DNA of 64,000 bases from Thermodesulfobacteriota bacterium (GCA_049514515.1 JBEKUZ010000008.1:9303-73302), one strand, 5' to 3'. Shown: positions 15,608 to 38,200, numbered from the stretch's first letter. Translations and numbers: made by a program. The notes: generated from the sequence alone by a model not told the origin.

Positions 15608-15624
15608 AGGAGTTAAAAACTCTC

Positions 15625-16509: not shown

Positions 16510-16513
16510 AACA

Positions 16514-16756
16514 ATGGCAAAACGAAAAACATGCAAAGCATGCAATGGCAAAGGCCTATTTGCACCTGCCGATCCTTCTTGCAAAATCCATGCACTTAGG
16601 CCACCATGGGTAGTAGTGGAGAGATGCGACTCTTGTGAATTCTTTTCCGACGATCTCCTTGCAGCGCAATCGCTTTATGGTCTGGCTGGCTGGTTTACTT
16701 GCACCGGGGGCGCATTTCATGCCCTTGCAGATACTCGGACATATGTGCGAAAGTAA
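16514..16756 (+). CDS. Small Cys-rich (zinc-ribbon-like) hypothetical protein
   Basis: 80 aa with CKACNGKG...C...CDSC. It starts 4 nt after the PLD gene stop. Confidence 0.4.
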   Translation: MAKRKTCKACNGKGLFAPADPSCKIHALRPPWVVVERCDSCEFFSDDLLAAQSLYGLAGWFTCTGGAFHALADTRTYVRK

Positions 16757-16818
16757 AGTGTGCGACATCTGCCATCGTCAGCTCCGCATTATCAGGAAGT
16801 CGCCGGCAAAAAGTACAA

Positions 16819-17433
16819 ATGGAGTCGGTATCAGCGACAAAGACCAACCAGGAAATAGCAGTTGCAATTCGGCCGGACCAGATGTTGAACTACATGGCCA
16901 ATGCTGAAGAACTTCATCGTCTGGGTAAGAATGCTGCCATGTACAGCCTACTGTCCAAGGCATCGGCATCTGAGAAGATTTTAGCGGAAGAGATCACCAA
17001 ACTTACCCCAAAACGTCAGAAAATCCTCTCCACCCTGACCCGATGGGCTCGATCAGCCTCTTTTCATCAGCAAGTGCTCCGTGCCTATGATAACAGATGC
17101 TCTGTTACACGGATGCAGCTGCGCCTTGTTGATGCAGCACATATCCTACTGGTTCAGGCTGAAGAGACCACTGACGACGTTCGTAACGGCATAGCCTTGT
17201 CACCGACCTACCATCGAGCCTTTGACGCAGGATTGATTTACCTTGATGAAAACTACGTAATGAGAATCAATACTGAACAGCAACTTCAACTCGTGACCCT
17301 AAGACTTGATGGAGGGATAGAAGATTTTAAGCACTATTTGAGCAAGCGGATCTATTTGCCCCCGGACAAACGGCAATGGCCTGACACTACTATGATTCGA
17401 AAGGCTAATAGATACCGACGCATTTCTCAATAG
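16819..17433 (+). CDS. HNH_2-family (PF13391-like) HNH endonuclease
   Basis: FHQQVLRAYDNRCSVT...VDAAHI...VRNGIALSPTYHRAFDAGLI matches the HNH_2 pattern. Start set at the ATG at 16819; the track ORF start at 16699 overlaps the previous gene. Confidence 0.7.
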   Translation: MESVSATKTNQEIAVAIRPDQMLNYMANAEELHRLGKNAAMYSLLSKASASEKILAEEITKLTPKRQKILSTLTRWARSASFHQQVLRAYDNRCSVTRMQLRLVDAAHILLVQAEETTDDVRNGIALSPTYHRAFDAGLIYLDENYVMRINTEQQLQLVTLRLDGGIEDFKHYLSKRIYLPPDKRQWPDTTMIRKANRYRRISQ

Positions 17434-17600
17434 AGATGCGATGCAGGAGCCTATAAAGCGTACGAACCAAACACTTACAGAAAATGCGATTTCTCAGGAT
17501 GCTCCGGCACAACGATCTCATATTGGGAGCGGTCAAGTGCCCCCCGAAAACCACCGTTTAATCCTGGTTAGCTTTTTTTACACGCTCGTTAGGCATTCCT

Positions 17601-18164
17601 ATGAGCGAAGCGCGTGCGATCATCGAAGTTTTAATTGAGGAGGGAAATGCAGCGCGCGCCCATTTCCAAGTGTGGTGGGCGCTTCGCAACGTGGCCATTC
17701 CGCGTTTCCTTCCGACTATGAATAACCTTGAGTATGTGGATTTCTTCCACGCTTCCAACGCTGGCCATTACAAGTTGTTCCTGCTGGCATTGTCGAAGAT
17801 ATTTGATCGAGACACTCGTGTTTCAGGTATTCGCGAACTTCGACGAGCATTGAAACAAGAAGGTCGCAATGACCTCGCCATGTACATTGGCAAAGAGCTC
17901 AACCCATTCCGCAAACACATCAGTGCGATTATGGGCATTCGTAGCCAATCTCTGGTGCACAATGAACGAGCCTTGCCACGTACAAAGGTTTACCAAATTA
18001 ATGGGGTTACCCCGAACCAGATTCGTAGCCTGATCGACAAGACCGCCAAAGCGATAAATTACGTTGCTCGCGAGCTCGGAATTACCAACACTATATTCGA
18101 GAGTGACCGTGCTGAACGAGCCACCATAAGAATGCTGAAAAAGCTTCAACGTGGAAGCATTTAA
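17601..18164 (+). CDS. Hypothetical protein, AbiU2-like HEPN-motif candidate (second copy)
   Basis: 187 aa. LALSKIFDRDTRVSGIRELRRAL block, then IRSQSLVHNE (R-x5-H). Same arrangement as ORF 14260..14919. Confidence 0.45.
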   Translation: MSEARAIIEVLIEEGNAARAHFQVWWALRNVAIPRFLPTMNNLEYVDFFHASNAGHYKLFLLALSKIFDRDTRVSGIRELRRALKQEGRNDLAMYIGKELNPFRKHISAIMGIRSQSLVHNERALPRTKVYQINGVTPNQIRSLIDKTAKAINYVARELGITNTIFESDRAERATIRMLKKLQRGSI

Positions 18165-21235: not shown

Positions 21236-21976
21236 TCAAACAATTCCGCCGTCCACGACAATCGTTTGGCCGGTGATATAGTCTGATTGGTCTGAGGCAA
21301 GAAAGAGGACGGCCCGGGCGACCTCTTCCGGCTTCCCAATCCTTCCCAGGCTGGATGATTTAATGATGGCTCCCACCTTCTCTTTGGGCATCTTGGACAC
21401 CACTTCCGATTCGATCAGGCCCGGAGCCACCGCATTCACATGGATGTTGAAAGAGCCTAACTCTCGGGCCAGGGATTTTGTGAAGCTGATCATCCCTCCC
21501 TTGGTTGCCGCATAATTGGCCTGGCCCGGAGTGCCCATGATTCCGCTGATGGAAGAGATATTGATGATCTTTCCCTTCCTCTGAGGAATCATCTTTCGAA
21601 TCACAATTCTGCAACAATAAAAAAGGCTGGTCAGATTCGCTCTAAGGAGAGAGTTCCAATCCTCATCGCTCATCAACATGAGGAAGTTATCCCTGACGAG
21701 GCCCACGTTGTTTACCAAAATATCGATCTTCCCGTATTGGGCGAAGGTCTCTTCCACCATTTCTTTTACCTGATCGGGCTGCGTGACATCCGCTTTAAAC
21801 AGGCCGACGCTGAGCCCTCCGGATTTGGATTCCTTCTTCAGATTTTCCGCGGCCTCCACGTCCTTTGAAAAATTGGCGACCACCTTTGCCCCATTCTCGG
21901 CAAAGAGAAGGGAGATCGCTTTTCCGATTCCCTTCGTTCCCCCGGTGACTATGGCTACTTGATCCTTCAATAGCAT
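21236..21976 (-). CDS. fabG: 3-oxoacyl-ACP reductase (SDR)
   Basis: TGGTKGIG cofactor motif, NNVG, S...YAATKGG catalytic triad region. Confidence 0.85.
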
Positions 21977-22044: not shown

Positions 22045-22121
22045 GTAGCGTCGGCATTTATTGCCGACGAAAATCTTTTGAATCGAGAATGCTAACCGCC
22101 CCCAGTAAATGGGGGCGCTAC
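22045..22121. repeat. REP doublet (GTAGCG-hairpin ... hairpin-CGCTAC), inverted orientation, 28-nt spacer
   Basis: gtagcgtcggcatttattgccgac ... cgcccccagtaaatgggggcgctac. This is the reverse complement of the units at 26520, 27094 and 32364. Confidence 0.85.
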
Positions 22122-22245: not shown

Positions 22246-23646
22246 TCACTTTAGTTCACTCAAGGGTCTTATTCTTGGTTTCTTCATTCTTCCCACCAGC
22301 TCCCATAGGGGGCCGCGAATTCGAAATCTCCGTATTTGCTCCATTAGATTTTTCGTGATGTTGATCTCCAGTCCGGGGACGATCCACCGCTGCCTTGCAA
22401 GGGCTTTTTCCTGAACGATCTCGCTCAGCCTCCCTCCCAATTTTGGCGAAATGTAGAAATGAGGGTAGATGAGGTTAGCGTCCTGAGAGATCACCCCCTG
22501 AGAACGGGAAATTCGCTCCATTTCGGTTCCCGGATAGATTCGGATGCCCAACATCGCAATGACCGCAGTGGGATCGACTTGATCCATCAAATGGAAAGAC
22601 TCCTCGATCGTCTCTTCATCTTCCCCTGGCCCTCCGAACAGGAGATAGTGGCACTGATTCACCATCAATTTGGAACAGAGGTTTGAGGCTTGGATGATGT
22701 CCTCTCGAGTGAAAGACTTTCTGTAACTCTCAAGCATCCGCGGAGATCCTGAATCCGTCCCAAACTCGATTCCATCACACCCAGCCTCTTTCATACTTTG
22801 CAAAAGTGTCTCATTCAGAAAGCTCGGGTTGACAAAAGCACTCCATTTGACATCGACCTTTCTTCCAACTATCTCACGACATAAAGCTTCTGCATAAAAG
22901 GGTGGATAGTTAAAGATATCGTCAACAAAATAGAGGTAGTCCACGCCCTCTCCCACGAGGTGTTGAATTTCCCCTACCACATCCTCCGTCTTCCTCAGCC
23001 TGACCCTTTTCCCTTCTAACAAAGGGTAAGTGCAGTAGATACAGGAGAAGGGGCAGCCTCGCTTCGTCTGAATATTTCCCATCCCTCCCTCTTCCAAATA
23101 ACGATGGGTTTCGAAAAGACTCCGATCAGGGCTTTGGATGGGAGAGACTCGAGCTCCTTCTGTCAAAGGAGGGAAAGGCTTCTCTTTAATAAGAAGATGG
23201 GGGGATGGAGAAATGGGAACACCCTTCTCGAGATGCTTCACCAATTCCACGAACACTTTTTCCCCCTCTCCTACAACCCCAACATCGACGTCGAAATGCT
23301 GAAGAAGCTCTTTGGGTGCCAAAGAATATCCTGAGCCTCCGATGACTAAATGTGAGGAGGTGAATTGACGACATATTCCAATGACCTCCTCTACCTCTTT
23401 GAGATAAGAGATGGAGGTTGGGTAAGTGAGATTATCGAGATTTCTAAGGGAGATGCCGATCATGTCGGGTTGAAAGCGCTGAAGGGTGTTCTTGAGATCA
23501 ACCGGTACCTCTTGAGAAAAGCAGAGGTCGATGACTTCAATCGGATGGCCCTCTTCTCTTAATGCCTCGGCGATGTAAGCCAATCCCAGAGGGAAGACAG
23601 GAAAAGGCATCTTCTCACGATTGACGGAGATGAGGAGAATTTTCAT
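22246..23646 (-). CDS. B12-binding-domain radical SAM protein (class B), paralog 4
   Basis: N-terminal Rossmann-like B12 domain (MKILLISVN...GLAYIA). CX3CX2C in TKRGCPFSCIYCTY. Confidence 0.85.
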   Translation of the reverse strand: MKILLISVNREKMPFPVFPLGLAYIAEALREEGHPIEVIDLCFSQEVPVDLKNTLQRFQPDMIGISLRNLDNLTYPTSISYLKEVEEVIGICRQFTSSHLVIGGSGYSLAPKELLQHFDVDVGVVGEGEKVFVELVKHLEKGVPISPSPHLLIKEKPFPPLTEGARVSPIQSPDRSLFETHRYLEEGGMGNIQTKRGCPFSCIYCTYPLLEGKRVRLRKTEDVVGEIQHLVGEGVDYLYFVDDIFNYPPFYAEALCREIVGRKVDVKWSAFVNPSFLNETLLQSMKEAGCDGIEFGTDSGSPRMLESYRKSFTREDIIQASNLCSKLMVNQCHYLLFGGPGEDEETIEESFHLMDQVDPTAVIAMLGIRIYPGTEMERISRSQGVISQDANLIYPHFYISPKLGGRLSEIVQEKALARQRWIVPGLEINITKNLMEQIRRFRIRGPLWELVGRMKKPRIRPLSELK

Positions 23647-24991
23647 AAGGAAGTTCTTTATCTTTGATCCTTCGAATCACCTCCATCTGGGCGCCCCGTA
23701 GGACAAAGTTTGACATCAGGAAGTAAAAAAAGTGATGCTTGGGGCCCCAGAGCAGGCGCTTCAATATGGATCGAGGGGCACAGATATATTTCTGTGCCCA
23801 GAGGTATCCGTCTTGGAGTTCCTGGACAGTCATTTTTCTCGGCTCGAAGACCACATGGCTCATGTCATAATGGGACCAATTGCGGTCGAAGATCCTCCCC
23901 TCCTCCTCCAATCGCTTCTCAAGAGGCGTCCCCGGAAAGGGAGTGAGAATGGAGAAAGTGGGGAGTTCAATATTATTTTTCTGGACGAATTCAACCGTTC
24001 TTCTAAAAATGGTGGGATCGTCTCCATCGAATCCGAAGATGAAAGAACCGTGTATCCCGATTTGGTGGTGTTGGATCGTATTGACCCAATTTGATAATTC
24101 TCCAGCATTGACAAATCGTTTCGAGACGCTGTCCAGATTCTCCTGGAGAAGGGATTCGAAGCCGATGAAGAGGGAGACACAGCCGCTCTCCTGAGCCTTT
24201 TTGAGAAGCTCCTCATTCATGGCAATCTTGATGGTGGTAAACGCCATCCATTTGACCCTGTGGCGTTTAAAGATCTCAAAGAGGCCACGGGCATAGTTTT
24301 CATTAGCGGTCACGTTGTCATCGGCTAAAAAGAGGTATTCCCCTTTTTTCTCGATGATGAGGGACAGTTCCCGATCTATTTCTTCAAGCGGGCGGAGCCG
24401 ATAACGCTTCCCATTGATGATCGGAATAGAGCAGAATTCACACCGGTTCGGACAACCTCGCGTGGTCTCGATGACCTTGAAGAAGGGTCGATACCCTTCC
24501 GCCAGAAGGTCCCTCCTCGGAAGAGGCATTCCTTTTAGATCCGACCACTCCCGATTCTTATAAAACGGCTTGAGTTCCCCTGCCTCGAAGTCTCGCAGGA
24601 CTTTTTCGAGTACCCCTTCCGCCTCTCCGATGAAGACCGAGTCAGCATGCTCTTTTGCCTCCTCGGGCAAAAGGCTGGGGTGGACTCCTCCCAAAATCAC
24701 CTTGACTCCCCTCTGACGAAACCCATCCGCAATTGCATAGGCTCTATTTATCACACAGGTCAGACCGGTGATCCCTACTAAATCGACTTCCGAATTGAAA
24801 TCGACTTCTTCGACCACCTCGTTGATGATCTTGACCTCATAGGTTTTGGGAAAGAGAGAGGCGAGAAGGGTAAGGCCTAATATGGGGAAAGGGTACAACG
24901 TGTCATTGGAAAATTTAATTCCTTTCTCCCTGGGAAAGATGAGAAGAACCTTCTTCAAATGCGGATTGCGGAATGCGGATTGCGGAGTCAT
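23615..24991 (-). CDS. B12-binding-domain radical SAM protein, paralog 3
   Basis: TTRGCPNRCEFCSI. The first about 11 codons (TPQSAFRNPH) are repeat-encoded. A TTG at 24958 (LKKVLLIFP) is a plausible true start. Confidence 0.85.
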   Translation of the reverse strand: MTPQSAFRNPHLKKVLLIFPREKGIKFSNDTLYPFPILGLTLLASLFPKTYEVKIINEVVEEVDFNSEVDLVGITGLTCVINRAYAIADGFRQRGVKVILGGVHPSLLPEEAKEHADSVFIGEAEGVLEKVLRDFEAGELKPFYKNREWSDLKGMPLPRRDLLAEGYRPFFKVIETTRGCPNRCEFCSIPIINGKRYRLRPLEEIDRELSLIIEKKGEYLFLADDNVTANENYARGLFEIFKRHRVKWMAFTTIKIAMNEELLKKAQESGCVSLFIGFESLLQENLDSVSKRFVNAGELSNWVNTIQHHQIGIHGSFIFGFDGDDPTIFRRTVEFVQKNNIELPTFSILTPFPGTPLEKRLEEEGRIFDRNWSHYDMSHVVFEPRKMTVQELQDGYLWAQKYICAPRSILKRLLWGPKHHFFYFLMSNFVLRGAQMEVIRRIKDKELPYENSPHLRQS

Positions 24992-27155: not shown

Positions 27156-27578
27156 TTACACCTCCAAATATTTCTGCATAGCCTCGATTCGTTCGAGCAC
27201 CTCTCGAGGAACCCGGTAGAGAAGATTCCCTTTAAGGTCGGTGAGGACATGCGTGGTGAAGCCCGTTGCAAGAACCTTTCTGCTTTCTTGATCAAGGACC
27301 CGATAATGAAAGATCAGCTTAGCTACCTCTGTCCTCTCCATCGTTGTCTGGATGATGAGAGGGGCGCCAAAGGTAGCTGGGAGCTTAAACTCGCAGTTTA
27401 GTTCGACGACCGGTGCCAGATAATTTGTGTCCTTAAGCTGAAGCGGCCCCATCTGGAATCGCTGGGTTAGGTCATTTCGACCCGCCTCAAACCACCCCAC
27501 ATAGTGGCCATGCCAGACCACTCCATAAGAATCCACTTCATAGAAACGAACTTGGAGGGGCGTCTCGTGGTATTTCAT
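27156..27578 (-). CDS. Hotdog-fold (4HBT/YbgC-like) acyl thioesterase
   Basis: MKYHETPLQVRFYEVDSYGVVWHGHY. Start at the internal ATG at 27578. The track N-terminal extension is PU-repeat translation. Confidence 0.75.
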   Translation of the reverse strand: MKYHETPLQVRFYEVDSYGVVWHGHYVGWFEAGRNDLTQRFQMGPLQLKDTNYLAPVVELNCEFKLPATFGAPLIIQTTMERTEVAKLIFHYRVLDQESRKVLATGFTTHVLTDLKGNLLYRVPREVLERIEAMQKYLEV

Positions 27579-27579
27579 T

Positions 27580-28542
27580 CTAATCCTTTTTCCCCCTCTC
27601 CCTCCCCTCGCCCCCCTGGGGAGAGGGATAGGGTGAGGGGCACCCGGCCGAAAAAGCCCCTGCCTCCCGATCAATCCATCGCATCAATTTCGTAAGAGCT
27701 GCCTCATGTCCTACTTCGACGAATTGCGTAAACCCTTCCCCCAGCAAGTTCTCGACACATCGGACCCAATAGACAGGCCGTGCGATCTCTTGGGAGAGAA
27801 AATCTTTGATCTCCTCTCTCCTCAAAGGCTTGATCGTCCAATGATTGAGGACGGGAACGTTGGGAGCTTGAATCTTGATATCTTGAAGGATGGTCATAAT
27901 CTCTTGCCTGAGAGAATAAAGCGAAGAGGAATGAAGAGCCGTGTTGAAGGCAAGACGGGTGGCTGAAACCGCCTTCCTGGAAAGGGCAAGGGAAATCGCG
28001 CTGTCCACTCCCGCCTCCTCCCCCGAGAGGACGAAATGCATCGAGCCATTATAATTAGCGATGGAGAGTTGAAACCCGTTGAGGTCTTGACAGATCTTTT
28101 GGACTTCCTCCAAGGGGAGGCCGATGATGCTGGCCATGCCTCCCCGGTGAGTCACCCCTTCTTTCTTGAGGAGCCGGCCGATGGCCTCCGTGATAAAGAG
28201 CCCTTCTTCGAAGCGGATGGCTTCCGACGCGGCCAGGGCTGCGTAGATTCCCATGCTGTGTTCGGCAAGGATATCCGGATTCCATCCCGCAGCTCGAAGA
28301 CGGTAGTAGTGGACCATCGAGAGGAGGTAAGTCGCGACCTGAAGCTTGAGGCTGAAATCTTCCTCTTCGTCCTTATCCCCGAATGAGAAGTTGAGGAGAT
28401 CGAATTTCGTCTGGCTGGAAGCCCTTCTTAATAGTTCTCTAAAATGGGGATCTCCTCTCAGGGGATGATGATCTTCAAGGATCGGCTTCTCATGAAGTTG
28501 GCCGGGAAAACAGAAAGCCGTTTTCCCTGTTGATCCCATCAT
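27580..28542 (-). CDS. FabD-like acyl-carrier-protein acyltransferase, divergent
   Basis: FPGQ..., nucleophile elbow EHSMG (canonical GHSLG), ALHSS (canonical AFHS). The last about 20 aa (PSPYPSPQGGEGRERGKKD) are encoded by the PU repeat. Confidence 0.7.
   Translation of the reverse strand: MMGSTGKTAFCFPGQLHEKPILEDHHPLRGDPHFRELLRRASSQTKFDLLNFSFGDKDEEEDFSLKLQVATYLLSMVHYYRLRAAGWNPDILAEHSMGIYAALAASEAIRFEEGLFITEAIGRLLKKEGVTHRGGMASIIGLPLEEVQKICQDLNGFQLSIANYNGSMHFVLSGEEAGVDSAISLALSRKAVSATRLAFNTALHSSSLYSLRQEIMTILQDIKIQAPNVPVLNHWTIKPLRREEIKDFLSQEIARPVYWVRCVENLLGEGFTQFVEVGHEAALTKLMRWIDREAGAFSAGCPSPYPSPQGGEGRERGKKD
27592..27641. repeat. PU palindromic repeat, copy 3 (inside the 3' end of the acyltransferase ORF)
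   Basis: ccccctctccctcccctcgcccccctggggagagggatagggtgaggggc. Confidence 0.85.
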
Positions 28543-28874: not shown

Positions 28875-29786
28875 TTATTCCTTCCAATAAGAGTAAAAAT
28901 TATACCATTGATCCGGGTATTTTTCGATATACCCCTCAAATTTTTTGATTAATCTCTCCATCCCCTCTCGAATAACGGCCTCCCGGGCCTTTCTCGAGGA
29001 GGGATTAAAATAGATGGGGGGCTCAATGATTCCTCTGTACTTTCGATTCTTTTCCATCACGACGAAGACGGGTAAGACCGGGGCCTCCGTGGCCATCGCG
29101 AGAATGGCGACGCCGATGGGAAAGGCCGTCTTCTTCCCAAAAAAATCGAAGACCATCGTCTTTTGAGACTCTATCCGATCCCCCAACATGGCCAGGATCT
29201 CGTTCCGCCGAAGGGCCTTGACAGCATCCAGGATCGCCATGGGAGAGTCATCCTTCGGATTGATATAGAGAATCTTTATTCCCCTCCTTCTTCTCATTTC
29301 CTCCCGAAAGGACCGGGTATCCGCATCTCTCTCGTCGAGAGTGAGGACATTGAGACTTCCTCCCCTGAAAGAGAAGAGCAATCCTCCGATCTCCCAATTC
29401 CCAAGATGGGGTGTGATACAAATCGCTCCTTTTCCGGCACGAAGGGCTTCGATCATATGATCCGCCCCTACCTCCTCTTCAACCCATCGTTCTTTATTGG
29501 ACGGACGGAGGCGATGCATCACCATGTAATCCAGAAGGTATTGTCCGTAGTTCTGGAACGTCTTGCGCGTTAAAACATCCACTCTCTCCTTTGACCACCT
29601 TCTTCTACTCACCCCTTCCATATTTTTTCGGACATGAGCTCTCGTCTTCCTCATCAGAAGATAAAAGAGATCTCCGATGACCACACTGAAGAATTTCTGG
29701 ATTGGCCGGGGGATGAGGGTGGAGCAAAACTGGAAGAAGAAGAGGTAGATAAACCGATTTAGTGATCGGGGGTGACGTTCTTCCAT
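28875..29786 (-). CDS. LpxL/HtrB-family (lysophospholipid/lipid A) acyltransferase
   Basis: 303 aa, N-terminal TM segment, ITPHLGNWEIGG (H-x-G-N-W-E motif). Confidence 0.75.
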   Translation of the reverse strand: MEERHPRSLNRFIYLFFFQFCSTLIPRPIQKFFSVVIGDLFYLLMRKTRAHVRKNMEGVSRRRWSKERVDVLTRKTFQNYGQYLLDYMVMHRLRPSNKERWVEEEVGADHMIEALRAGKGAICITPHLGNWEIGGLLFSFRGGSLNVLTLDERDADTRSFREEMRRRRGIKILYINPKDDSPMAILDAVKALRRNEILAMLGDRIESQKTMVFDFFGKKTAFPIGVAILAMATEAPVLPVFVVMEKNRKYRGIIEPPIYFNPSSRKAREAVIREGMERLIKKFEGYIEKYPDQWYNFYSYWKE

Positions 29787-29787: not shown

Positions 29788-31158
29788 TTAACCCCCGAAG
29801 TAGTCTCTTAAAAAAGCAAGAAGCGTCCGCATACCCAAATGATGTTTCTTGACGTGATGCCAGATATCCTGAATCGCTTTCTTCGACCGGGTATAGTAGA
29901 GAAGATGTGCCTTTAGCAGAAGCCACTCCATTCGGATAAATGAGAGATGGTCGTGCTTGAAGACCAGGTGCTGCATATCAAAGAAGGACCAGGGCGATCT
30001 CCATTTGAAGATCCGGTCCTTCACCTGCTGATAGATGGCTGTCCCCGGATAAGGGGTGAGGATGGCGAACTGGGCCACATTCGTGTCGAGCTTTTTTGCA
30101 AAACGGATGGTGTCATGAATCGTCTTGGCGGTATCGTGGAGCCCCGCCAGGATATAGGAGGCATGAATCTCAAGGCCATTCCGTTTCAGCATCTCCACCG
30201 TCTGAACGGTTTCGTCCACATGAATCCCCTTCCTCAGCTCTTCGAGGGTTTTCGGGCTGGAGGATTCCACTCCGATAAAAACCGACTTTGCTCCTGCCCT
30301 CACCATCTCTTTCACCATCTCTCCATTTCGGAGCAGGAGGTCGATCCTGGAGAGGCACCACCACCAGAGGTCGAGTTCTTTTTCAACGATCCCATGGCAA
30401 ATTTCAATCACCCTTTTTGGATTGAGGTTGAAGGTATCATCCACGAAGGCGACGGCATGAAAATGATATCGATAATAAACCTCTTCGATTTCCTTTAGAA
30501 CAGAGGCCACACTCCTGGCCCTGATTTTCGTTCCCCAAAAATGGGAGGAAGAACAAAAAACGCATTGATAGGGACACCCACGGCTCGTGATCATAGGGGT
30601 AATGGGACGGCCTCCAATTTTTGTCTTTTGATAATCTTCGATATGGATCAGATGCCTGGCGGGGAGGGGAAGACTGTCGAGATCCTCGATGAAAGGTCTG
30701 GGAAGAGTTCGTACCAGCTTTCCCTTTGAAAAGAAACTAATTCCCTTGACCGAATCAAATGGACCATTTTTCTTTTCTAAGGCAGCAACCAATTCTGAAA
30801 AGGTGATCTCGCCTTCTCCGCGGACGATGAAATCAACTTTCTTCGTTGAGAGGATTTCTTCATCTACATATCCTGGATGGGGTCCCCCCATCACTACCGT
30901 GCAACCGTTGGCCTTTGCTTTCTTGGCTAATCGAAGGGCCTGACGGTGGCGGGTTGTATCCGTGGAGATACCGACCAAATCATATTTTTTAAAATCGATC
31001 TCTTCCTTCTTCCTTCGAACAGCCAAGTCCCTGACCACGACCGGTTGGCCCTCTTTCTCCGCATACGCCGCAACGTAGAGAAGGCCGAGAGGGGGAAAGA
31101 GAACCCCTGTTGCTTTTAAGGTTCCCGTAGGAGCAGGGTTGATCAATAGGATGTTCAT
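29788..31158 (-). CDS. B12-binding-domain radical SAM protein, paralog 1
   Basis: MNILLINPAP..., TSRGCPYQCVFCSS. Start at the internal ATG at 31158. The stop is 1 nt from the LpxL-like start. Confidence 0.85.
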   Translation of the reverse strand: MNILLINPAPTGTLKATGVLFPPLGLLYVAAYAEKEGQPVVVRDLAVRRKKEEIDFKKYDLVGISTDTTRHRQALRLAKKAKANGCTVVMGGPHPGYVDEEILSTKKVDFIVRGEGEITFSELVAALEKKNGPFDSVKGISFFSKGKLVRTLPRPFIEDLDSLPLPARHLIHIEDYQKTKIGGRPITPMITSRGCPYQCVFCSSSHFWGTKIRARSVASVLKEIEEVYYRYHFHAVAFVDDTFNLNPKRVIEICHGIVEKELDLWWWCLSRIDLLLRNGEMVKEMVRAGAKSVFIGVESSSPKTLEELRKGIHVDETVQTVEMLKRNGLEIHASYILAGLHDTAKTIHDTIRFAKKLDTNVAQFAILTPYPGTAIYQQVKDRIFKWRSPWSFFDMQHLVFKHDHLSFIRMEWLLLKAHLLYYTRSKKAIQDIWHHVKKHHLGMRTLLAFLRDYFGG

Positions 31159-31187
31159 TGAAAAACTTCTCCCAGAACTACACGACG

Positions 31188-31360
31188 TTCCAAATTTCAA
31201 ATTACAAATCCCAAATAAACTCCAGTCTCCATTATCCAATGACCGGAGCCGATTTTGCCCCCTCACCCTTCCCCTCTCCCCGCTGGGGAGAGGGAGGGGG
31301 TGAGGGGAATTTCAAGTATCTTCGGTTGATATTCATTTGGAGTTTAGTATTTGTAATTTG
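31188..31360. repeat. Nested composite palindrome (AT-rich outer arms around PU copy 5 at 31258-31307)
   Basis: The left arm caaattacaaatcccaaataaactcc is the inverted match of the right arm ggagtttagtatttgtaatttg, with PU at the centre. Confidence 0.75.
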
Positions 31361-31380: not shown

Positions 31381-32352
31381 CTATGCGCCATGCGCTATGC
31401 TATCCTTTTTTTGGCGATAGCGCTCGCAGAGGTCGCCCCAGCAGGCCACCACTTGGTGGTCCACCAGAAGCTGGATCACTTCACACTGATTTCCGCATTC
31501 TTCACAATCAAACCCCCGTGTGGAACACGACTTTTGAGGAAGATCAAATCCTCTAAATTGAGTTTTGGAGGGTTTGGCCTTCTTCACCAATTTTGCAGCC
31601 CCGATGGCACCCATGACGTCAAAATGTTCCGGGATGACGAGAGAGACCTCCAACTCTCTTTCGAGCGCTCTTTGGATGCCTCGATTCGCCGCGACACCAC
31701 CCTGGAAGACGATGGGAGAAAGGATTTCTTTCCCACGGCAGACGTTATTCAAATAGTTCTTCACCAGGGAGTCACAGAGGCCAGCCACAATATCCTCAAC
31801 AGAATGTCCGATCTGTTGCTTATGAATCATATCTGTTTCGGCAAAGACCGTGCATCGGCCTGCGATCCGGACAGGGTGGTCGGCCTTGAGCGCGAGGTCT
31901 CCGAAAGCCTCGATGGAGATCCCGAGCCTCGCTGCCTGCTGATCCAGGAAAGATCCCGTGCCTGCCGCGCAGACGGTATTCATGGCAAAGTCGACGACGA
32001 CGCCGTTCCTCAGGACGATGACCTTGGAATCCTGGCCGCCGATCTCGATGATGGTCTTGGCCTCCGGCAGGAAATCAATTACGGAAACGGCATGGGCCGT
32101 GATCTCATTTTTGACAAGATCGGCGCCTACCAGATAAGCAGCCAAATGTCTGGCACTGCCGGTGGTCGCCACTCCGTCAATAGAAACGATTTTCCTAAGC
32201 TGAGTCAGGATTTCCTCCATCCCCTGCTGGATGGCTTCGATGGGCCGCCCGCTATTGCGAATATAGGACTTGGCCAAAACCCGGTCGTCTCCGCTAAGCA
32301 CCACTAACTTGGTGGTAATGGACCCGACATCAATGCCTAAATAGTTTGCCAT
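31381..32352 (-). CDS. BcrAD/BadFG/HgdC-type ATPase (activase) with Cys-rich C-terminal tail
   Basis: MANYLGIDVGSITTK (ASKHA phosphate-1), IEIGGQDSK, CAAGTGSF. Tail CSTRGFDCEECGNQCE. Start at the ATG at 32352, because the track start (MRALQ) lies in the REP. Confidence 0.8.
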   Translation of the reverse strand: MANYLGIDVGSITTKLVVLSGDDRVLAKSYIRNSGRPIEAIQQGMEEILTQLRKIVSIDGVATTGSARHLAAYLVGADLVKNEITAHAVSVIDFLPEAKTIIEIGGQDSKVIVLRNGVVVDFAMNTVCAAGTGSFLDQQAARLGISIEAFGDLALKADHPVRIAGRCTVFAETDMIHKQQIGHSVEDIVAGLCDSLVKNYLNNVCRGKEILSPIVFQGGVAANRGIQRALERELEVSLVIPEHFDVMGAIGAAKLVKKAKPSKTQFRGFDLPQKSCSTRGFDCEECGNQCEVIQLLVDHQVVACWGDLCERYRQKKDSIAHGA

Positions 32353-32363
32353 AATAGGAATTT

Positions 32364-32418
32364 GTAGCGCCCTCATTTATTGAGGGCGGAGTCGGTCGGC
32401 AATGAATGCCGACGCTAC
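32364..32418. repeat. REP doublet
   Basis: gtagcgccctcatttattgagggcg - 6 nt - gtcggcaatgaatgccgacgctac. Confidence 0.85.
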
Positions 32419-32433
32419 TCTATTTGACCTTTG

Positions 32434-33471
32434 TCATTTGTAATTGATTTGAACTTGATTCACCTTCGGTTCATCACTCCGTGCGACATTTGAACTTTGT
32501 AATTTCTTCTGCTCTTCCACGACATCCCGGAACGCCTCCAGCCGGGTGGTCAATCCTTCCCTTCCGGTATGTTCGTCAAGGGAGAGAATGAGCAGGGGGA
32601 CGGAGGCTCTTCCCTGGACTTTCAACCTTCTTTTGATAAATTCTTGAAGAAGGGCATCGATACCGCACTTAAAGGAGGTAAGGAAGACCACTCCATCCAC
32701 CCCATCGGATAGAAAGTGAAACAGAGACCCTACAATTTCTCTCCCGGACGACCAGTAGATCTCTTTGGAGAGGTCAGAGACTTCTCGATCGATCTCCTTT
32801 TCGGAAAGAAGATCAGAGGTAACGATCTCCATTTGCAAACTTTTCGCCAGGGCAAGGAGGTCTTTGTTGATATCGGTGTCGAAGAGATTGTAAGGATGAC
32901 CGATGAAAGCGATACGGAACGGAGCTTTTTTTCTCACGGGCGACATTGGAACATCCATTTCGAAAAGCTGGGCCGTGGGAAGCCGGTTGATTCGGTCCAC
33001 CCAATCCTTCTGAAATTTGGAAAAAGACTTCTCTGCCTCTCGAAAGGCCCTCTTGCTCTCTTGCCTTGAGGCGCCCAGCTTTTCACCGATCCTTAGAAAA
33101 GTCTGAAGAAGGGACATTCCTCCTTTTCGAAGATCGATGGTTTCGTCAAGGATGGAAACATTTCCTTCCGTAGCAAGCCGCACGATGTCGGGGGCTCCCC
33201 GAAACTTAGGACACATGATGTAAGTTCGATGAATACTGACTAACCGAGGGATAAAAAGATGATCCACCTTGTCTTTCAATTGAACTGCATGCGTGACCAG
33301 AAGTTTCATCGGAAGACAACTGTCTTCGAAATAGATGATCTTCTCCTTCTGTCTTGCCCCGTCGGAAATCTTCACCCTCCAGCCCAGCCTTTCAAAAAAA
33401 GGGCGCCAGAGAGGAAGGTAGCGATAAAACATCAGGGCTCTGGGAATGCCTATGCGGCCTTTCTCTTCCAT
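32434..33471 (-). CDS. Acyl-CoA dehydratase activase-related protein (DUF2229/HgdB-like), subunit B
   Basis: MEEKGRIGIPRALMFYRYLPLWRPFFERLGW..., FKCGIDA, LSLDEHTGREGLTTRLEAF. Start at the internal ATG at 33471, giving a 22-nt overlap with the upstream gene. Confidence 0.7.
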   Translation of the reverse strand: MEEKGRIGIPRALMFYRYLPLWRPFFERLGWRVKISDGARQKEKIIYFEDSCLPMKLLVTHAVQLKDKVDHLFIPRLVSIHRTYIMCPKFRGAPDIVRLATEGNVSILDETIDLRKGGMSLLQTFLRIGEKLGASRQESKRAFREAEKSFSKFQKDWVDRINRLPTAQLFEMDVPMSPVRKKAPFRIAFIGHPYNLFDTDINKDLLALAKSLQMEIVTSDLLSEKEIDREVSDLSKEIYWSSGREIVGSLFHFLSDGVDGVVFLTSFKCGIDALLQEFIKRRLKVQGRASVPLLILSLDEHTGREGLTTRLEAFRDVVEEQKKLQSSNVARSDEPKVNQVQINYK

Positions 33472-34550
33472 TCCAACATCTCCACAAAGGCCTCGAGAAG
33501 TGTCTGAATGCGGCCTTCGATCTCTTGCTCGTCCAGGATGAGCGTCAGGATAGGAATGTCTCGGTCCCTCCCGACCTTTGTCAGAATTCCAGAGGCGGTG
33601 GTCTCCGGCATGCAGGCAAAGGGCATGAGATGGACGATCCCGTCGTATCCTTCTTGGGCTCTCAGGATGGCCTCGCCGATGGAGATATTGCATTCTGCGC
33701 CGACATCGTAACCCAGGTAAGCCTTTGATGCTTCGAAGAACCGAACGCGTTCCGAAGCCCGATCCGCCTTATTTTTGCGAAGACTCCTCAGAATATGAGT
33801 GGAGAACCAGGAGGTGCGCGTTACTTCGACGCCCAGTTCCCCCAGCTTTTGCTCCACTCCTCGATTGATATGGGGGTCCATGACCGTATAAAGCTCGCCC
33901 ACAATGGCGACCCGAAACGGGATGCGGGACCGGTCTTGCTCCATTTCCTGAAGAAGGGTCTTTCCATTTTGAATGGCTTCTTCGACGGTCTTTTGAGTTT
34001 TCGCCTCATCTACCAGGGAGAGGGCCTTCTTCAGTCGCTTTTGAGTCTCTCCTTTCTTGAGCTCCATCGGTCTGACCTTCATGGCCAATCGTTCTAAGGC
34101 TTCACAGGCCATCATCTTCTTCCATCCCATCCAGAGCCCGTAAGGGAAGAAGAGAACGTTTCTGGCGCTCAATTCTTTTCTCAGATCCTTCGTCTCCTCG
34201 TGATTCTTCCAGAGGGCCTTCCAGCTAAATCGAGGTGGAATCGTCAGCCATCGATAATGAAGGCCCATATCTTCGAGGATCACTTTTTGGACAAGGTCAT
34301 AGAGTCCGAGACGGCAAGGAGGCCCACTGCCGACCATCACAATGGTATCCGCCCCCATCTGAAGGGCTTCGATAAAATTTCCCAGGATGATTTTGAAAGG
34401 AAGACAGATACACTCATTCGAGTGGAGGACACCCAGGGTCAGGGTCTTGCGACTGGTTTCAGGAGGAAGGATGTAAGGAATGCCGGCGGTCTCTGCGATC
34501 GCCTTGCAGAAGATGTGCATCGAGCCCAGACGGGGAAAGGTCACCTTCAT
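33450..34550 (-). CDS. Acyl-CoA dehydratase activase-related protein (DUF2229/HgdB-like), subunit A
   Basis: LTLGVLHSNECICLPFKIILGNFIEALQMGADTIVMVGSGPPCRLGLY and FACMPE...ILTLILDEQE blocks, typical of the CoA-enzyme activase C-terminal region. Confidence 0.7.
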   Translation of the reverse strand: MKVTFPRLGSMHIFCKAIAETAGIPYILPPETSRKTLTLGVLHSNECICLPFKIILGNFIEALQMGADTIVMVGSGPPCRLGLYDLVQKVILEDMGLHYRWLTIPPRFSWKALWKNHEETKDLRKELSARNVLFFPYGLWMGWKKMMACEALERLAMKVRPMELKKGETQKRLKKALSLVDEAKTQKTVEEAIQNGKTLLQEMEQDRSRIPFRVAIVGELYTVMDPHINRGVEQKLGELGVEVTRTSWFSTHILRSLRKNKADRASERVRFFEASKAYLGYDVGAECNISIGEAILRAQEGYDGIVHLMPFACMPETTASGILTKVGRDRDIPILTLILDEQEIEGRIQTLLEAFVEMLEWKRKAA

Positions 34551-35956
34551 CCATGTCTACCCACTACCTTTTTCCCTGTCGAAAGGGGCTCGGGGGTTGG
34601 ACCCTCCATTTTTTCTTTCCAGGCGGCTTCCGCAATCTCTCCGTAAGCTTTCGCGTAGCTGTCGATGGCCTGTGCAAAATCCGTAAAAAGCTGCTCTGCC
34701 CCTTCATGGGTAAAGTATTTTGCGTACTGAAGGGCAAACTCCCTCCCTTTCTGAGGGTGATCGATCAGGGGACAGGCTCGAAACAAGTTCTCCGAGAAAG
34801 GCTGGTGGGATCGCATTTCCTTGAAGAGAGGAGAATTGAGAGCTTCCATGAGAGACTTCTCTTTGATATTGTCAGAAGCAAAATGGCAAAAGATACAGGG
34901 CTCGACATCCCCCTGGGCATTCACATGAAAGTACTTCCTCCCCGCGGCAATGCATCCCTGAGTGAGACAGCCATCGTTCCAGAAATCAACGAAAAGCATC
35001 GGTTTGGTGGCCCGAAAATAGGCCAGCCGTTCCCTTGCCCGACACCTCTGCTCAGGAGTCACCATGAGGGAGAGATCAGGGTTTCTTCCGATGGGGACGT
35101 AATGGAAGTTCCAGAGAAGGATGCATCCTCGCTCCACCAGAAAATCGACAAAGGCATCGCTCGTCAGGACATCGTGATTTTTGGAAGTCTGCGTCGTGGA
35201 GACAGCAAAAAAGATCCCAGCTTCTTTGAGTCGATCCATCACCCGCAGAGCTCGATCGAACTGCCCCTTGCCTCTTCTTCCATCGGTTTCTTCTCTGAGC
35301 CCTTCGAGGCTGATTGCGGGAGAGACATTCCCCAGAGCCACGAATCGATCGATCATCTTCTCGTCGATCAAGGTGGCATTGGTATAGACCTGAAACATCA
35401 TATCATCATGCTTTTCAAAGAGGTCGAAAAGATCCTGCCTCAAGAAGGGTTCTCCGCCCGTCATCATGACCAGATGGATACCCATCTCTTTACATTCCCC
35501 CATGAGCCGATCCAGCACCTCATAAGGAAGATCCTCCTGGGAATAGACCCCTGAATAACAACCATAGCAATTCAGGTTGCACCGCATCGTCGGGCTGATC
35601 AACATGGCGTCCGGCGGATAAAATCCCCTTTCTGCCTCAAAGGCCTTTCTTCGATTGGTGCCCACGAGGAGTTGGTTAACGATGAAGTTGGAGATGAGTT
35701 TTCTCCGATGATGGGGATGCGTCTCGCTGAGAACCCTCTTCGCAATCGACAGACCGGGATGATTGGTTTGGAACAGGGTGCGAATCCATCGAATCTTCTC
35801 TCGATAGGATTCCTTTTGGGGAATTTTCTCCGCAAGATAGGTCAGACGGATCAAATTCTCTGTGGAGGCGCCTGCCAGGAGAGAAAGAGCGCTCGCGGTG
35901 AATTTTTCTATGGAATATCGCTTCGCTCGCTGATAAAAATCCATCTTCCTCCTCAC
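34547..35956 (-). CDS. Radical SAM protein with SPASM/twitch-like C-terminal Cys cluster
   Basis: SPTMRCNLNCYGCY (CX3CX2C), GGEPFL, C-terminal CIAAGRKYFHVNAQGDVEPCIFC. 4-nt overlaps at both ends. Confidence 0.8.
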   Translation of the reverse strand: MRRKMDFYQRAKRYSIEKFTASALSLLAGASTENLIRLTYLAEKIPQKESYREKIRWIRTLFQTNHPGLSIAKRVLSETHPHHRRKLISNFIVNQLLVGTNRRKAFEAERGFYPPDAMLISPTMRCNLNCYGCYSGVYSQEDLPYEVLDRLMGECKEMGIHLVMMTGGEPFLRQDLFDLFEKHDDMMFQVYTNATLIDEKMIDRFVALGNVSPAISLEGLREETDGRRGKGQFDRALRVMDRLKEAGIFFAVSTTQTSKNHDVLTSDAFVDFLVERGCILLWNFHYVPIGRNPDLSLMVTPEQRCRARERLAYFRATKPMLFVDFWNDGCLTQGCIAAGRKYFHVNAQGDVEPCIFCHFASDNIKEKSLMEALNSPLFKEMRSHQPFSENLFRACPLIDHPQKGREFALQYAKYFTHEGAEQLFTDFAQAIDSYAKAYGEIAEAAWKEKMEGPTPEPLSTGKKVVGRHG

Positions 35957-36642
35957 CAGAACAGACCCCGAAGAAAAAGCATACAGACGATCCAGGTATC
36001 GGCCACTGGCCTGAAATGGCTGGAGCCGGTTCCGTCAATTCTGGGCGTATTGATAGGAACAGATAACACACTGAACCCCTTTTTGCAAGCTTTAATAAGG
36101 AGTTCCAATTCCGTCTCGAATCGGGATGTCGAGAGCTCGACCGCCCTTAACACCTCCGTCCGAATGAGTCGAAACCCGGATTGGCTGTCCAAAATGTCCG
36201 AGTGGCAGAGCCGTGAAACAGCCTTTACCCCCAAACGATTCCAAAAGCGGCGGAGGAAGGTCATTTTGTCAAACTCCGTTGCCCGGGAGGCAATGAGGAT
36301 ATCGGGTTTGACGCTTTGAAAAATCCTGAGAAGGGACGGGATTTCTGCGGGATCATGTTGACCGTCTGCATCCAGAGTGATCACCACCCGATAGTCTCTT
36401 TGGAGGATATATTGGAATCCTGTCCGAAGGGCAGCCCCCTTTCCAAGGTTAAGGGGGTGCACCAGGAGTTGGACTCTATTTTCCAAAGCCAACCGCTTCG
36501 TCTCATCCGAAGATCCGTCATCGACGACAACGATATCGCTTTTGAGAGGTTCGATTTTTTTTAGAACCGAACCAAGAGTGTCCTGAGCATTATAAGCAGG
36601 GATGAGGATACAGATTTTATCCGACCGTTGCATACAATCCAT
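35953..36642 (-). CDS. Family 2 glycosyltransferase
   Basis: ICILIPAYNAQDTL...VVVDDGSSDET...LDADGQHDP. Confidence 0.8.
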   Translation of the reverse strand: MDCMQRSDKICILIPAYNAQDTLGSVLKKIEPLKSDIVVVDDGSSDETKRLALENRVQLLVHPLNLGKGAALRTGFQYILQRDYRVVITLDADGQHDPAEIPSLLRIFQSVKPDILIASRATEFDKMTFLRRFWNRLGVKAVSRLCHSDILDSQSGFRLIRTEVLRAVELSTSRFETELELLIKACKKGFSVLSVPINTPRIDGTGSSHFRPVADTWIVCMLFLRGLFW

Positions 36643-36938: not shown

Positions 36939-38096
36939 TCATCGTCTCTCCAAAAATCGTTTCATTTCAGCATCGTACAGGAAGGTGAAAAAGGTTGCAA
37001 CCGATCCCAACAACGGAAGGGGGTCATCTTTTGAAAACACATCATAGCAAGTATTGGGATCAAAGAAGTTGAAGAAGGAAGGATCAAGGCCAAAACGTTG
37101 CGGATGGTTCAAAAAATGAAGGATGTCCCCCAGGAGAAGCCAGCGAAAACGTTTCCCCACGGCGTAGTGAAGAACGGGGTCGAAATGTTCCTTCCTGGCC
37201 ATCTTCAAAATGAGAAAGGGAAAATCAACTCCAGATACAATGGCCAGCTGTAATGAGCCCCAAAAGCGGGGGTTCACCTCCATCAATTTCGGAATCCCAT
37301 CTCTTGGATCGACTTTGAATTCGACCATGCCCACGCCAACCCAATTTAACGACTTAAGGAGGGAGAGGCCCAACTCCATGATCTGAGGATGTTCTATCCC
37401 TTCCGCCAACGTGCTGGGACCTCCTTGAATCGGATACATCCTCAACTTCTTATGAACGAAGGCAGCCTTGACGTTCGAAGCCTCATCAAACAGGGCGGAC
37501 AGCCCAAAGGTCCCTCCTCCGTCGGGAATCCATTCCTGAATCAACGGAAAAGGATACCGTCCATGGACGTTTTGATAAGACGAGCTGAGGTCCTCCCCCT
37601 TCTTTACATAGACTATGCCAAAGGAGCCGGAACTGATCCGCGGTTTAATCACTGCTGGAATTGGAATAGAGGAGGATGAAGAAGTAGGAAGGTCATAGAA
37701 TGTTTTGGGCGTTGGGATCCCGTGGGCTTCTGCAAACCGTATAAGATTTCCCTTGTCCCGCACGAATTCAATCTTTTTCAAATCGGGAATGAGGAGGTAA
37801 GCATATTTGGAGATTTCAGAATGATATTTCGCCAGCGAAAGCAGCGTTCCCTCTTCCATGGGGAAGAGGCAGTCGTACTGTTTTTTTTTAATCTCTCTCA
37901 GAATAAATTCAATAAATTGATTTGGGGATTGCTGTGGTGAAGGATAGACCAGACGCCTGGTGCAATACCTCGAAAAGAAGGAGGTATTCAGGCATGTCCG
38001 CTCTCCGACAGTGACAGGGACCCCTTTCCGACCAAGGGATCGAACCACAGCCAATGATTTTCTAAAGTGCCCATCCGTGACCAGAACACGCGCCAT
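36939..38096 (-). CDS. ATP-grasp domain protein (carboxylate-amine/thiol ligase type)
   Basis: MARVLVTDGHFRKSLAVVRSLGRKG..., AVIKPRISSGS, EWIPDGG, MVEFKVDPRDGIPKLMEVNPRFWGS. Start at the ATG at 38096. The track TTG start at 38150 reads through a repeat. Confidence 0.75.
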   Translation of the reverse strand: MARVLVTDGHFRKSLAVVRSLGRKGVPVTVGERTCLNTSFFSRYCTRRLVYPSPQQSPNQFIEFILREIKKKQYDCLFPMEEGTLLSLAKYHSEISKYAYLLIPDLKKIEFVRDKGNLIRFAEAHGIPTPKTFYDLPTSSSSSIPIPAVIKPRISSGSFGIVYVKKGEDLSSSYQNVHGRYPFPLIQEWIPDGGGTFGLSALFDEASNVKAAFVHKKLRMYPIQGGPSTLAEGIEHPQIMELGLSLLKSLNWVGVGMVEFKVDPRDGIPKLMEVNPRFWGSLQLAIVSGVDFPFLILKMARKEHFDPVLHYAVGKRFRWLLLGDILHFLNHPQRFGLDPSFFNFFDPNTCYDVFSKDDPLPLLGSVATFFTFLYDAEMKRFLERR

Positions 38097-38105
38097 GAAC
38101 TTATA

Positions 38106-38200
38106 TTGCGGATTTCGAAATGCGGATTGCGGATGAACATCTAATACCAAATCTGTCGTTTGAATTTAAACTCCGCAATCGCCACTCCGCAATCCGAAAT
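38106..38200. repeat. Inverted pair of cgcaatccgca-type repeats
   Basis: ttgcggatttcgaaatgcggattgcgga (38106-38133) is the inverted match of ctccgcaatcgccactccgcaatccgaaat (38171-38200). Related copies lie at 24959-24987 and 63136-63156. Confidence 0.75.

Follow-up and report, generated by a model that had tools for sequence, protein, structure and literature searches.

To our knowledge, PlsA and Ger are the only characterised enzymes of the DUF2229 branch of the benzoyl-CoA reductase/2-hydroxyacyl-CoA dehydratase (BCR/HAD) family. Ger, the glycerol ester reductase, is a DUF2229 BCR/HAD enzyme that converts sn-1 esters to alkyl ethers (PMC13159169), and both Ger and PlsA act on ester bonds (PMC13159169, PMC12838417). 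A 'BBD' core, in which two tandem activation domains precede DUF2229, is described as a shared feature of alkyl-ether producers (PMC13159169), and plsA-plsR forms a two-gene operon in C. perfringens (CPE1194/1195; PMC12838417). Sequence alone cannot tell Ger from PlsA, and PlsA homologs without activation domains have been noted whose role is unclear (PMC13274423); surveys of bacterial ether-lipid potential nevertheless search for homologs of these two enzymes (PMC13159169, PMC11868695). Here we analyse three adjacent genes, Red2, Red1 and Act, in a 64,000-nucleotide stretch from a Thermodesulfobacteriota bacterium (GCA_049514515.1 JBEKUZ010000008.1:9303-73302; the whole stretch is hereafter the window), which an annotation made from the sequence alone (the initial annotation) had described as a split PlsA/Ger-like redox module. 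The module proved to be intact, of the ATP-dependent BCR/HAD type and of the DUF2229 branch. The reading that we favour, though by no wide measure of confidence, is that the trio forms a three-subunit ATP-dependent Fe-S radical enzyme of this branch, a paralog dedicated to the surrounding lipid gene cluster and acting on the carbonyl of an acyl ester or thioester. In the literature searched, neither the trio nor the cluster is described.

Gene layout, fold and conserved cysteines of the trio

Three minus-strand open reading frames (ORFs), in the order Red2-Red1-Act, hold every motif quoted in the initial annotation (window positions 31381-34550):

33450-34550, minus strand: Red2, a putative catalytic subunit of 366 residues, counterpart of PlsR and of the C-terminal module in fused enzymes
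32434-33471, minus strand: Red1, a putative catalytic subunit of 345 residues with the complete Pfam DUF2229 inside
31381-32376, minus strand: Act, a BcrAD/HgdC-type ATPase of 331 residues with a four-Cys tail
31594-32340, minus strand: Act core, residues 13-261, an ASKHA ATPase of the HgdC/HadI/BcrAD type with Cys136 (CAAGTG) and Cys175 (CTVFAE)
31417-31557, minus strand: Act C-terminal Cys domain, residues 274-320, FRGFDL...F-D-C291-x2-C294-x3-C298...W-G-D-L-C317-E-R-Y

Red1 starts at MEEKGRIGIPRAL, as do its homologs and the independent gene calls, so that the longer ORF, which extends to 33693, does not represent the gene. The end of Red2 overlaps the start of Red1 by 22 nt (33450-33471), as initially annotated, and independent gene calls on metagenome contigs of the same sequence recovered this overlap. 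Several metagenome contigs carry identical DNA, and the spacing of the three genes is unchanged in most orthologous loci. Junction overlaps join a family 2 glycosyltransferase (GT2) gene, a radical S-adenosylmethionine (SAM)/SPASM gene, Red2 and Red1: GT2 overlaps the radical SAM/SPASM start by 4 nt, and the radical SAM/SPASM stop overlaps the Red2 start by 4 nt. An intergenic gap of 57 nt (32376-32434) separates Red1 from Act. A hairpin-type repeat, CGTCGGCATT(T/C)ATTGCCGAC, occurs in this gap and again after a short-chain dehydrogenase gene (22049-22069).

The assignment of Act to the BcrAD/HgdC-type ASKHA ATPases was upheld. The protein matches Pfam BcrAD_BadFG (PF01869; 158.5 bits, 3e-46, cutoff 31.5) and TIGR00241 'acyl-CoA dehydratase activase' (201.7 bits, 1e-59, cutoff 125.4), and its PDB sequence matches are MbdQ (4e-39), HadI (7e-39) and HgdC (1e-35), with about 250 residues aligned. 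Cys136 and Cys175 align with the corresponding cysteines of MbdQ and HadI, so that both cluster-bridging positions are occupied, and they are kept in 33 of 33 Act sequences. In HgdC, Cys127 and Cys166 are the cluster ligands, and on this basis Cys136 and Cys175 are the probable pair bridging a [4Fe-4S] cluster in an Act homodimer.

The Cys-rich tail of Act, initially described as extra, is present, and HadI and HgdC, with chains of about 270 residues each, are without it; it is nevertheless not an addition but a conserved linker between the ATPase and Red1. Cys291, Cys294, Cys298 and Cys317 are invariant (33/33), while Cys284 and Cys312 vary, and the motif F-D-C291-E-E-C294-G-N-Q-C298...W-G-D-L-C317-E-R-Y matches the linker F-E-C-K-G-C-x-N-x-C...Y-G-S-R-C-E-K-Y of fused enzymes. 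Every fused protein inspected carries this four-Cys linker motif, among them ten (P0338/343/353/362/364/367/373/376/388 and P0444, residues 586-633), as does the stand-alone Act of Acididesulfobacillus. Because its four cysteines are invariant and the motif is present both in fused linkers and in a stand-alone Act, we regard the tail as a family feature, evidently homologous to the Act2-Red1 linker of the fused enzymes. Judged from these alignments, an F-x-C-x2-C-x-N-x-C...G-x-x-C linker after the ATPase would define the PlsA/PlsR-Ger family. The tail may bind a relay cluster; alternatively, it may bind a structural metal by which Act docks on Red1, in place of the covalent link of the fused enzymes.

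Red1 matches the full DUF2229 model (PF09989) at residues 6-221 (137.3 bits, 7.7e-40, cutoff 29.4), which covers only the N-terminal two-thirds of the protein, and Red2 matches it partially (48.8 bits, 9e-13). Both stay below the cutoff of HGD-D (PF06050; 28.4 bits), Red1 with 21.1 and Red2 with 27.0 bits, over the last ~60 residues only. The two proteins are paralogs (blastp, 3e-10). A sequence search of the PDB gave no match for Red1, and Red2 and a Red1-Red2 fusion profile matched only the C-terminal ~60 residues of the double-cubane cluster protein (DCCP) and HadC; the conserved-Cys motif of DCCP there, where HadC was also reached, is the sole sequence-level PDB likeness that we highlight for the Red modules. 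Since sequence searches gave nothing beyond this segment, a comparison of folds was needed, for which we used AlphaFold2 models (predicted local distance difference test scores of 90.5 for Red1 and 91.4 for Red2). Foldseek matches of both proteins extend over the whole length with a probability of 1.00 (E 1e-9 to 1e-5, template-modelling (TM) score about 0.5-0.58). For Red1 the top match is HadC (3o3m_B, 1e-8), and DCCP is also found (7yyl, 3e-8); Red2 matches DCCP (7yyl/6eno), BzdO (8s02_B) and HadC (3o3m_B) at 2.5e-9 to 1e-7, with 7yyl_A closest (2.5e-9). Further matches of the Red proteins are to benzoyl-CoA reductases (8s02_B, 9g87_B) and MbdN/O. The initial annotation had taken Red1 and Red2 for counterparts of the two halves of the DUF2229 region. 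Because the Foldseek matches span the whole length, and because DUF2229 corresponds to residues 672-888 of a 1396-residue fused relative, all in its Red1 module, the models instead indicate two paralogous, complete subunits of the HgdA/B type (HAD/BCR/DCCP fold), with DUF2229 wholly in Red1.

The only cysteines of Red1 are Cys52, Cys87 and Cys269; none of them varies in 32-36 orthologs or in the Red1 alignments. Cys49, Cys79 and Cys313 of Red2 are likewise invariant in 32-36 orthologs and at least 90% conserved across a diverse Red2 alignment, and the last cysteine of each triad aligns with the conserved C-terminal cysteine of DCCP and HadC. Loss of the Fe-S ligands, which the initial annotation had raised as a sign of decay, is thus seen in none of the three proteins. 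Each triad is a predicted ligand set for one [4Fe-4S] cluster; three-Cys clusters in each dehydratase subunit were reportedly described by Knauer and colleagues in 2011. DCCP of C. hydrogenoformans, which acts with DCCP-R (6ENO, 7YYL) and is the best structural match of Red2, is a homodimer with six cysteines per subunit and an [8Fe-9S] cluster, and this double-cubane cluster is said, in work by Jeoung and Dobbek from 2018, to need six cysteines. The trio, in contrast, has two different subunits with three cysteines each conserved family-wide, and Red2 scores 15.5 bits against the NCBIfam double-cubane model NF040772 (cutoff 350). Red1 diverges faster than its neighbours, with 47-94% identity across the orthologous loci L004-L040 against 72-97% for Red2 and 65-97% for Act, and it has an insertion of variable length near residues 175-200, where one homolog (P0002) has ~20 extra residues.

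Fused and stand-alone forms of the enzyme

The canonical order in the fused enzymes is Act1-Act2-linker-Red1-Red2, so the permuted order Red2-Red1-Act, remarked on in the initial annotation, is a real swap. Red1 corresponds to the N-terminal half and Red2 to the C-terminal half of Red1-Red2 fusions of ~730 residues (E 2e-59 and 6e-78, respectively). In the 1396-residue fused protein P0444, the stretch made up of Act2 and linker (323-633) shares 50% identity with Act and Act1 shares 45%; residues 672-976 are 25% identical to Red1, and residues 1001-1382 are 24.5% identical to Red2.

That this region is fused with two ATPase domains in most genomes, as the initial annotation held, is not established, as the fused form is abundant and the stand-alone and Red1-Red2 forms are likewise. 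With Red1 as query, an exhaustive HMMER search gave matches in 2049 representative clusters; the best 150 comprise stand-alone proteins of ~130-380 residues (some of them fragments) and a handful of Red1-Red2 fusions of ~700-770 residues, with none above 1000 residues. The fusion profile recovers many ATPase-less Red1-Red2 proteins (Chloroflexota, Bacillota) and then ATPase-fused forms, and a search with the fused protein of locus L035 showed the ~1400-residue form to be very abundant as well. The cultured Bacillota species Acididesulfobacillus acetoxydans has an overlapping three-gene operon (L042, 6001-9326; 'acyl-CoA dehydratase activase-related protein' type) that encodes the same three proteins, including the Act Cys tail (Act 58% and Red2 33% identical to the window proteins); unlike the window trio, its order is Red1-Red2-Act and its neighbours are spoVA and gerA rather than a lipid cluster, the operon lying directly downstream of these two genes. 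A three-gene split layout is by itself ordinary and common.

We also built a neighbour-joining tree of 246 Red1 domains, without bootstrap, sampled with a bias from the queries and with validated PlsA, PlsR and Ger not among the sequences. In this tree all ATPase-fused forms group in a single clade, which also takes in seven apparently contig-truncated fragments, and the window Red1 lies outside it, in the stand-alone clade that also holds trios of the A. acetoxydans type and Red1-Red2 fusions. Stand-alone DUF2229 proteins form a large, separate branch, in which Red1 and Red2 go with a single Act that bears the same Cys linker.

Both forms coexist in relatives of the window genome. In the closest of these, Red2 and Act are 97% and Red1 86% identical to the window proteins. 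On its contig_9170 (2,225,948 bp) the split cluster lies at 654-676 kb (L004) and the canonical fused 1396-residue enzyme ~230 kb away, at 421.7-425.9 kb (P0444; L052, 8001-12191). In L035 the fused gene (1 to ~3900, minus strand) lies directly beside the cluster, which keeps its own Red2-Red1-Act. Given that the fused enzyme coexists with the trio in relatives, and that Red1 lies outside the fused clade, the trio is a paralog and not the organism's Ger/PlsA in pieces. These comparisons point to an old stand-alone paralog tied to a lipid cluster, the fused copy being seen in relatives and the window spanning 64 kb. Of the initial designation as a split PlsA/Ger, the DUF2229 affiliation therefore holds, whereas the equation with PlsA/Ger is not supported, the Red proteins being ~25% identical to the fused enzyme, Red1 lying outside the fused clade in the neighbour-joining tree, and the trio occurring alongside the fused enzyme on one contig of the nearest relative.

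The described enzymes can be compared with the trio module by module. PlsA/PlsR (C. perfringens CPE1194/1195; a single-ORF PlsA in Enterococcus and Lactococcus) contains the same modules, BcrAD_BadFG, Red1 (DUF2229) and Red2, and would share with the trio the oxygen-sensitive Fe-S chemistry of the BCR/HAD family; its reported sizes suggest that the plsA/plsR split lies between Red1 and Red2. The trio differs from PlsA in having one ATPase gene instead of two tandem ATPase domains and three separate genes in the order Red2-Red1-Act, and from PlsA/PlsR, with CPE1194/1195 compared by description, in its different clade, its specialised cluster and its ~25% identity to fused-type Red modules. Ger (T. 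maritima Tmari_0479; D. alkenivorans SHJ90043) is likewise a DUF2229 BCR/HAD enzyme and is found in Thermodesulfobacteriota, and its architecture BBDH... corresponds to Act-Act-Red1-Red2; it is, however, a single polypeptide with two activation domains, and relatives of the trio keep such a fused gene additionally. The trio does not have the fused 'BBD' architecture, its single stand-alone Act lying downstream of the Red genes, and BBD proteins are separate genes in the relatives. Where sequence cannot distinguish Ger from PlsA, it could still less assign the more distant trio, and surveys that look for Ger by homology may include paralogs of another function.

The surrounding lipid cluster

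The interest of the locus lies not in the split but in a dedicated paralog placed within an uncharacterised yet conserved lipid cluster, rich in radical SAM genes, of uncultured, Syntrophaceae-like anaerobes. The genes around the trio are:

36939-38150, minus strand: ATP-grasp protein, the proximal end of the syntenic block
35953-36642, minus strand: GT2 glycosyltransferase, family 2, polyprenyl-phosphate sugar synthase-like
34547-35956, minus strand: radical SAM/SPASM protein (Pfam Radical_SAM and SPASM), syntenic in orthologous loci
29788-31266, minus strand: B12-binding radical SAM protein a, accessory, missing from several orthologous loci
28875-29786, minus strand: LpxL/PIM-acyltransferase-like acyltransferase (Lip_A_acyltrans), its linkage to Red1-Act extending to the distant L047
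28539-28811, minus strand: acyl carrier protein (ACP), PRK09184 type (76.4 bits, cutoff 70), 70% identical to its L047 counterpart
27580-28542, minus strand: FabD-like acyltransferase, malonyl-CoA:ACP transacylase family
27156-27674, minus strand: 4HBT-fold thioesterase, with a counterpart in L047
26579-27106, minus strand: IS200/Y1-transposase-like (RAYT-like) protein, inside the cluster; among orthologous loci only in L001-3, L006, L008, L037 and L039
25090-26532, minus strand: B12-binding radical SAM protein b
23615-24991, minus strand: B12-binding radical SAM protein c
22246-23646, minus strand: B12-binding radical SAM protein d, NCBIfam TIGR04072 'lipid biosynthesis B12-binding/radical SAM protein' (385.8 bits, cutoff 360)
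21236-21976, minus strand: FabG-like short-chain dehydrogenase (SDR), the distal cluster end

A locus scan with a four-sequence Red1 alignment, the reach of which is limited to Syntrophaceae-type relatives, identified 38 related loci in ~35 species, all from metagenome-assembled genomes (MAGs) of Syntrophaceae/Thermodesulfobacteriota. These share one conserved order with 45-97% identity per protein: (RadC-ATP-grasp)-GT2-radical SAM/SPASM-Red2-Red1-Act-(B12-radical SAM a)-LpxL-like acyltransferase-ACP-FabD-like-4HBT thioesterase-(Y1 transposase)-B12-radical SAM b, c, d-FabG-like SDR. This synteny bears out the tight linkage to a lipid-type cluster that had been proposed at the outset. L047 (3823-7829; Red1 45% and Act 64% identical), on an unrelated metagenome contig, retains Red1-Act-LpxL-like acyltransferase-ACP-4HBT thioesterase, with neither Red2 nor radical SAM genes nearby. 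Because this distant locus keeps that core, the stable functional partnership appears to be that of the reductase with the ACP/acyltransferase system. The gene right after the Red1 homolog in another locus, L046, encodes a ketoacyl synthase. The window's lineage has a stand-alone branch hard-wired to an ACP/acyltransferase/radical SAM cluster, while its relatives keep the fused enzyme elsewhere in the genome.

Scans of the cluster genes against Pfam and NCBIfam recognised no dehydratase or enoyl reductase and no CoA ligase or transferase, and a promoter/terminator scan across the cluster gave counts equal to chance. Against solved structures the radical SAM/SPASM protein has only generic matches (SkfB, 2e-11; GDGT-MAS 7tol, 3e-3). 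A Tes/Mss-like identity is not claimed for it, as the GDGT-MAS match covers the radical SAM core only and is weaker than that to SkfB. TIGR04072 is the 'ladderane-type' lipid B12/radical SAM family, and protein d alone belongs to it, which is the sole link to the ladderane literature; proteins a, b and c best resemble BchE, HpnJ or HpnR, below cutoff. No BCR/HAD-type gene is listed for the anammox clusters (Rattray 2009).

The cluster is interspersed with a repetitive extragenic palindrome (REP)-like sequence of ~21 nt, CCTCTCCCCgcnGGGGAGAGG, which occurs in eight copies in the window (14072, 22017, 27606, 28840, 31273, 36779, 62439 and 63110) against 0.06 expected. Five copies lie in intergenic gaps of the lipid cluster and split it into blocks, those at 36779 and 31273 bracketing GT2-radical SAM-Red2-Red1-Act; where copies are translated, they lengthen the mechanical ORFs at the C-terminus of the FabD-like protein and the N-terminus of the 4HBT thioesterase. 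The Y1-transposase-like gene may be the partner of these palindromes. Elsewhere in the window, a defence/restriction-like island of lower GC content (14260-18164; GC 0.47-0.48) encodes an N6/N4 DNA methylase fragment, a PLD/NgoFVII-like nuclease, an HNH protein and a HEPN AbiU2-like protein, and upstream of it lies a CrtC-like lipocalin protein of the hydroxyneurosporene synthase family (12895-14037, minus strand).

Candidate chemistry and competing explanations

By analogy with HgdC/HadI and HadBC, and with DCCP-R and DCCP, Act would form a homodimer in which Cys136 and Cys175 bridge a [4Fe-4S] cluster. ATP binding and hydrolysis would lower the potential of this cluster and drive one electron into a heterodimer of Red1 and Red2; the C-terminal four-Cys domain may either relay this electron or dock Act onto Red1. 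Each Red subunit would hold one three-Cys [4Fe-4S] cluster, and the electron would generate a ketyl-type radical at the acyl carbonyl, leading to reduction or dehydration. A low-potential reduction or dehydration on the lipid of the cluster, the step initially proposed, is a reasonable expectation, and the substrate is most likely the ester or thioester carbonyl of an ACP-derived acyl chain. Our leading guess is a Ger-like conversion, in which the ester made by the neighbouring acyltransferase would become an alkenyl or alkyl ether. In favour of this, the trio belongs to the DUF2229 branch, Ger and PlsA have a published activity that turns esters into ethers, and an acyltransferase of the ester-forming kind is encoded nearby. 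The trio offers a concrete candidate, amenable to cloning, for a second type of ATP-driven chemistry at lipid carbonyls in strict anaerobes.

Several observations weigh against this enzyme and its assignment to lipid carbonyls. As L047 is without Red2, the Red1/Red2 heterodimer is not universal in the stand-alone family, and the Acididesulfobacillus trio sits beside spore genes without lipid context. Red1 and Red2 are only 24-25% identical to the fused type, the tie to PlsA/PlsR/Ger runs through architecture, Pfam and fused homologs, and, because Red1 lies outside the fused clade, the function of the trio may differ from that of the fused enzymes. Family membership, fold, conservation of the ligand cysteines, synteny and paralogy are seen directly in the sequences and models; the types of Fe-S cluster, the subunit stoichiometry, the substrate and the product are deduced from homologs.

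The main alternative, which we consider possible but clearly the less probable account, is a HAD/BCR-type enzyme working on a chain-building thioester, by radical dehydration of a 2-hydroxyacyl-ACP or -CoA or by ATP-driven reduction of an unsaturated acyl thioester. Such an enzyme would supply the dehydratase/enoyl-reductase step that the cluster, with its ACP, FabD-like and FabG-like proteins, otherwise recognisably lacks, and it would fit the ketoacyl synthase directly after Red1 in L046, the retained minimal core of Red1-Act-acyltransferase-ACP-thioesterase and the thioester substrates of the structural neighbours HadBC and BzdNO. HadBC/HadI and HgdAB/HgdC share the three-gene plan of a homodimeric activator ATPase and two paralogous catalytic subunits. 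However, the Red subunits are 13-14% identical to theirs (TM about 0.55), the best family is DUF2229, with HGD-D at 21-27 bits below its 28.4-bit cutoff, and the linker motif is common to the PlsA/Ger-type fused enzymes; nor does the locus offer a CoA-transferase context, the scanned cluster genes including no CoA ligase or transferase. The class I benzoyl-CoA reductases BzdNOPQ and MbdONPQ similarly couple ATP to electron transfer from BcrAD-type ATPases to HgdA/B-fold subunits, and they include the best sequence match of Act (MbdQ) and structural matches of the Red proteins (BzdO, MbdN/O), but they have two different ATPase subunits and act on aromatic CoA esters, and the window has no aromatic-degradation context.

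It is rather improbable that the trio serves the organism as its general synthase of plasmalogens or alkyl ethers (PlsA/PlsR or Ger), with the modules spread over three genes and bulk membrane phospholipids as substrate. The trio does have DUF2229, an Act module, both Red modules and the linker motif, and in C. perfringens the enzyme is already divided between two genes, plsA-plsR (PMC12838417). Against this, the nearest relative has a canonical fused 1396-residue enzyme ~230 kb off on the same contig, the fused enzyme stands right beside the cluster in L035, Red1 falls outside the fused clade (neighbour-joining, no bootstrap), and the trio is fixed in a specialised cluster in ~35 species.

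A more elaborate proposal, that the trio performs the ether-forming carbonyl reduction in an anaerobic pathway, specific to Syntrophaceae, for tailored lipids, either ether or membrane-spanning, of the branched glycerol dialkyl glycerol tetraether (GDGT) kind, we regard as speculative and, as a whole, unlikely. Tes, Gms and, as postulated, Mss belong to a class of radical SAM enzymes for C-C coupling, and GrsA and lipid methylases to a class of B12-radical SAM enzymes for methylation or cyclisation. In such a pathway the radical SAM/SPASM protein would take the former role and the B12-binding radical SAM proteins the latter, with ACP, acyltransferase and GT2 building and decorating the lipid. 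Relatives of the window genome include MAGs labelled SPRUCE, which we take to be the Minnesota peat-bog experiment; if both this and the ether/GDGT-kind proposal were true, the cluster would indicate that anaerobes other than acidobacteria are a source of such lipids in peat.

Very little speaks for a DCCP-like small-molecule reductase lying next to the lipid genes by chance: DCCP is among the best structural matches, above all for Red2, but the synteny with lipid genes is held in ~35 species and in the distant L047, and each subunit has three conserved cysteines against the six of the DCCP double-cubane cluster. Decay of a fused gene, which the split layout alone might suggest, we reject on conservation, as the reading frames are intact, the candidate ligand cysteines are all invariant in 32-36 orthologs, and gene order is conserved across species at 47-97% identity.

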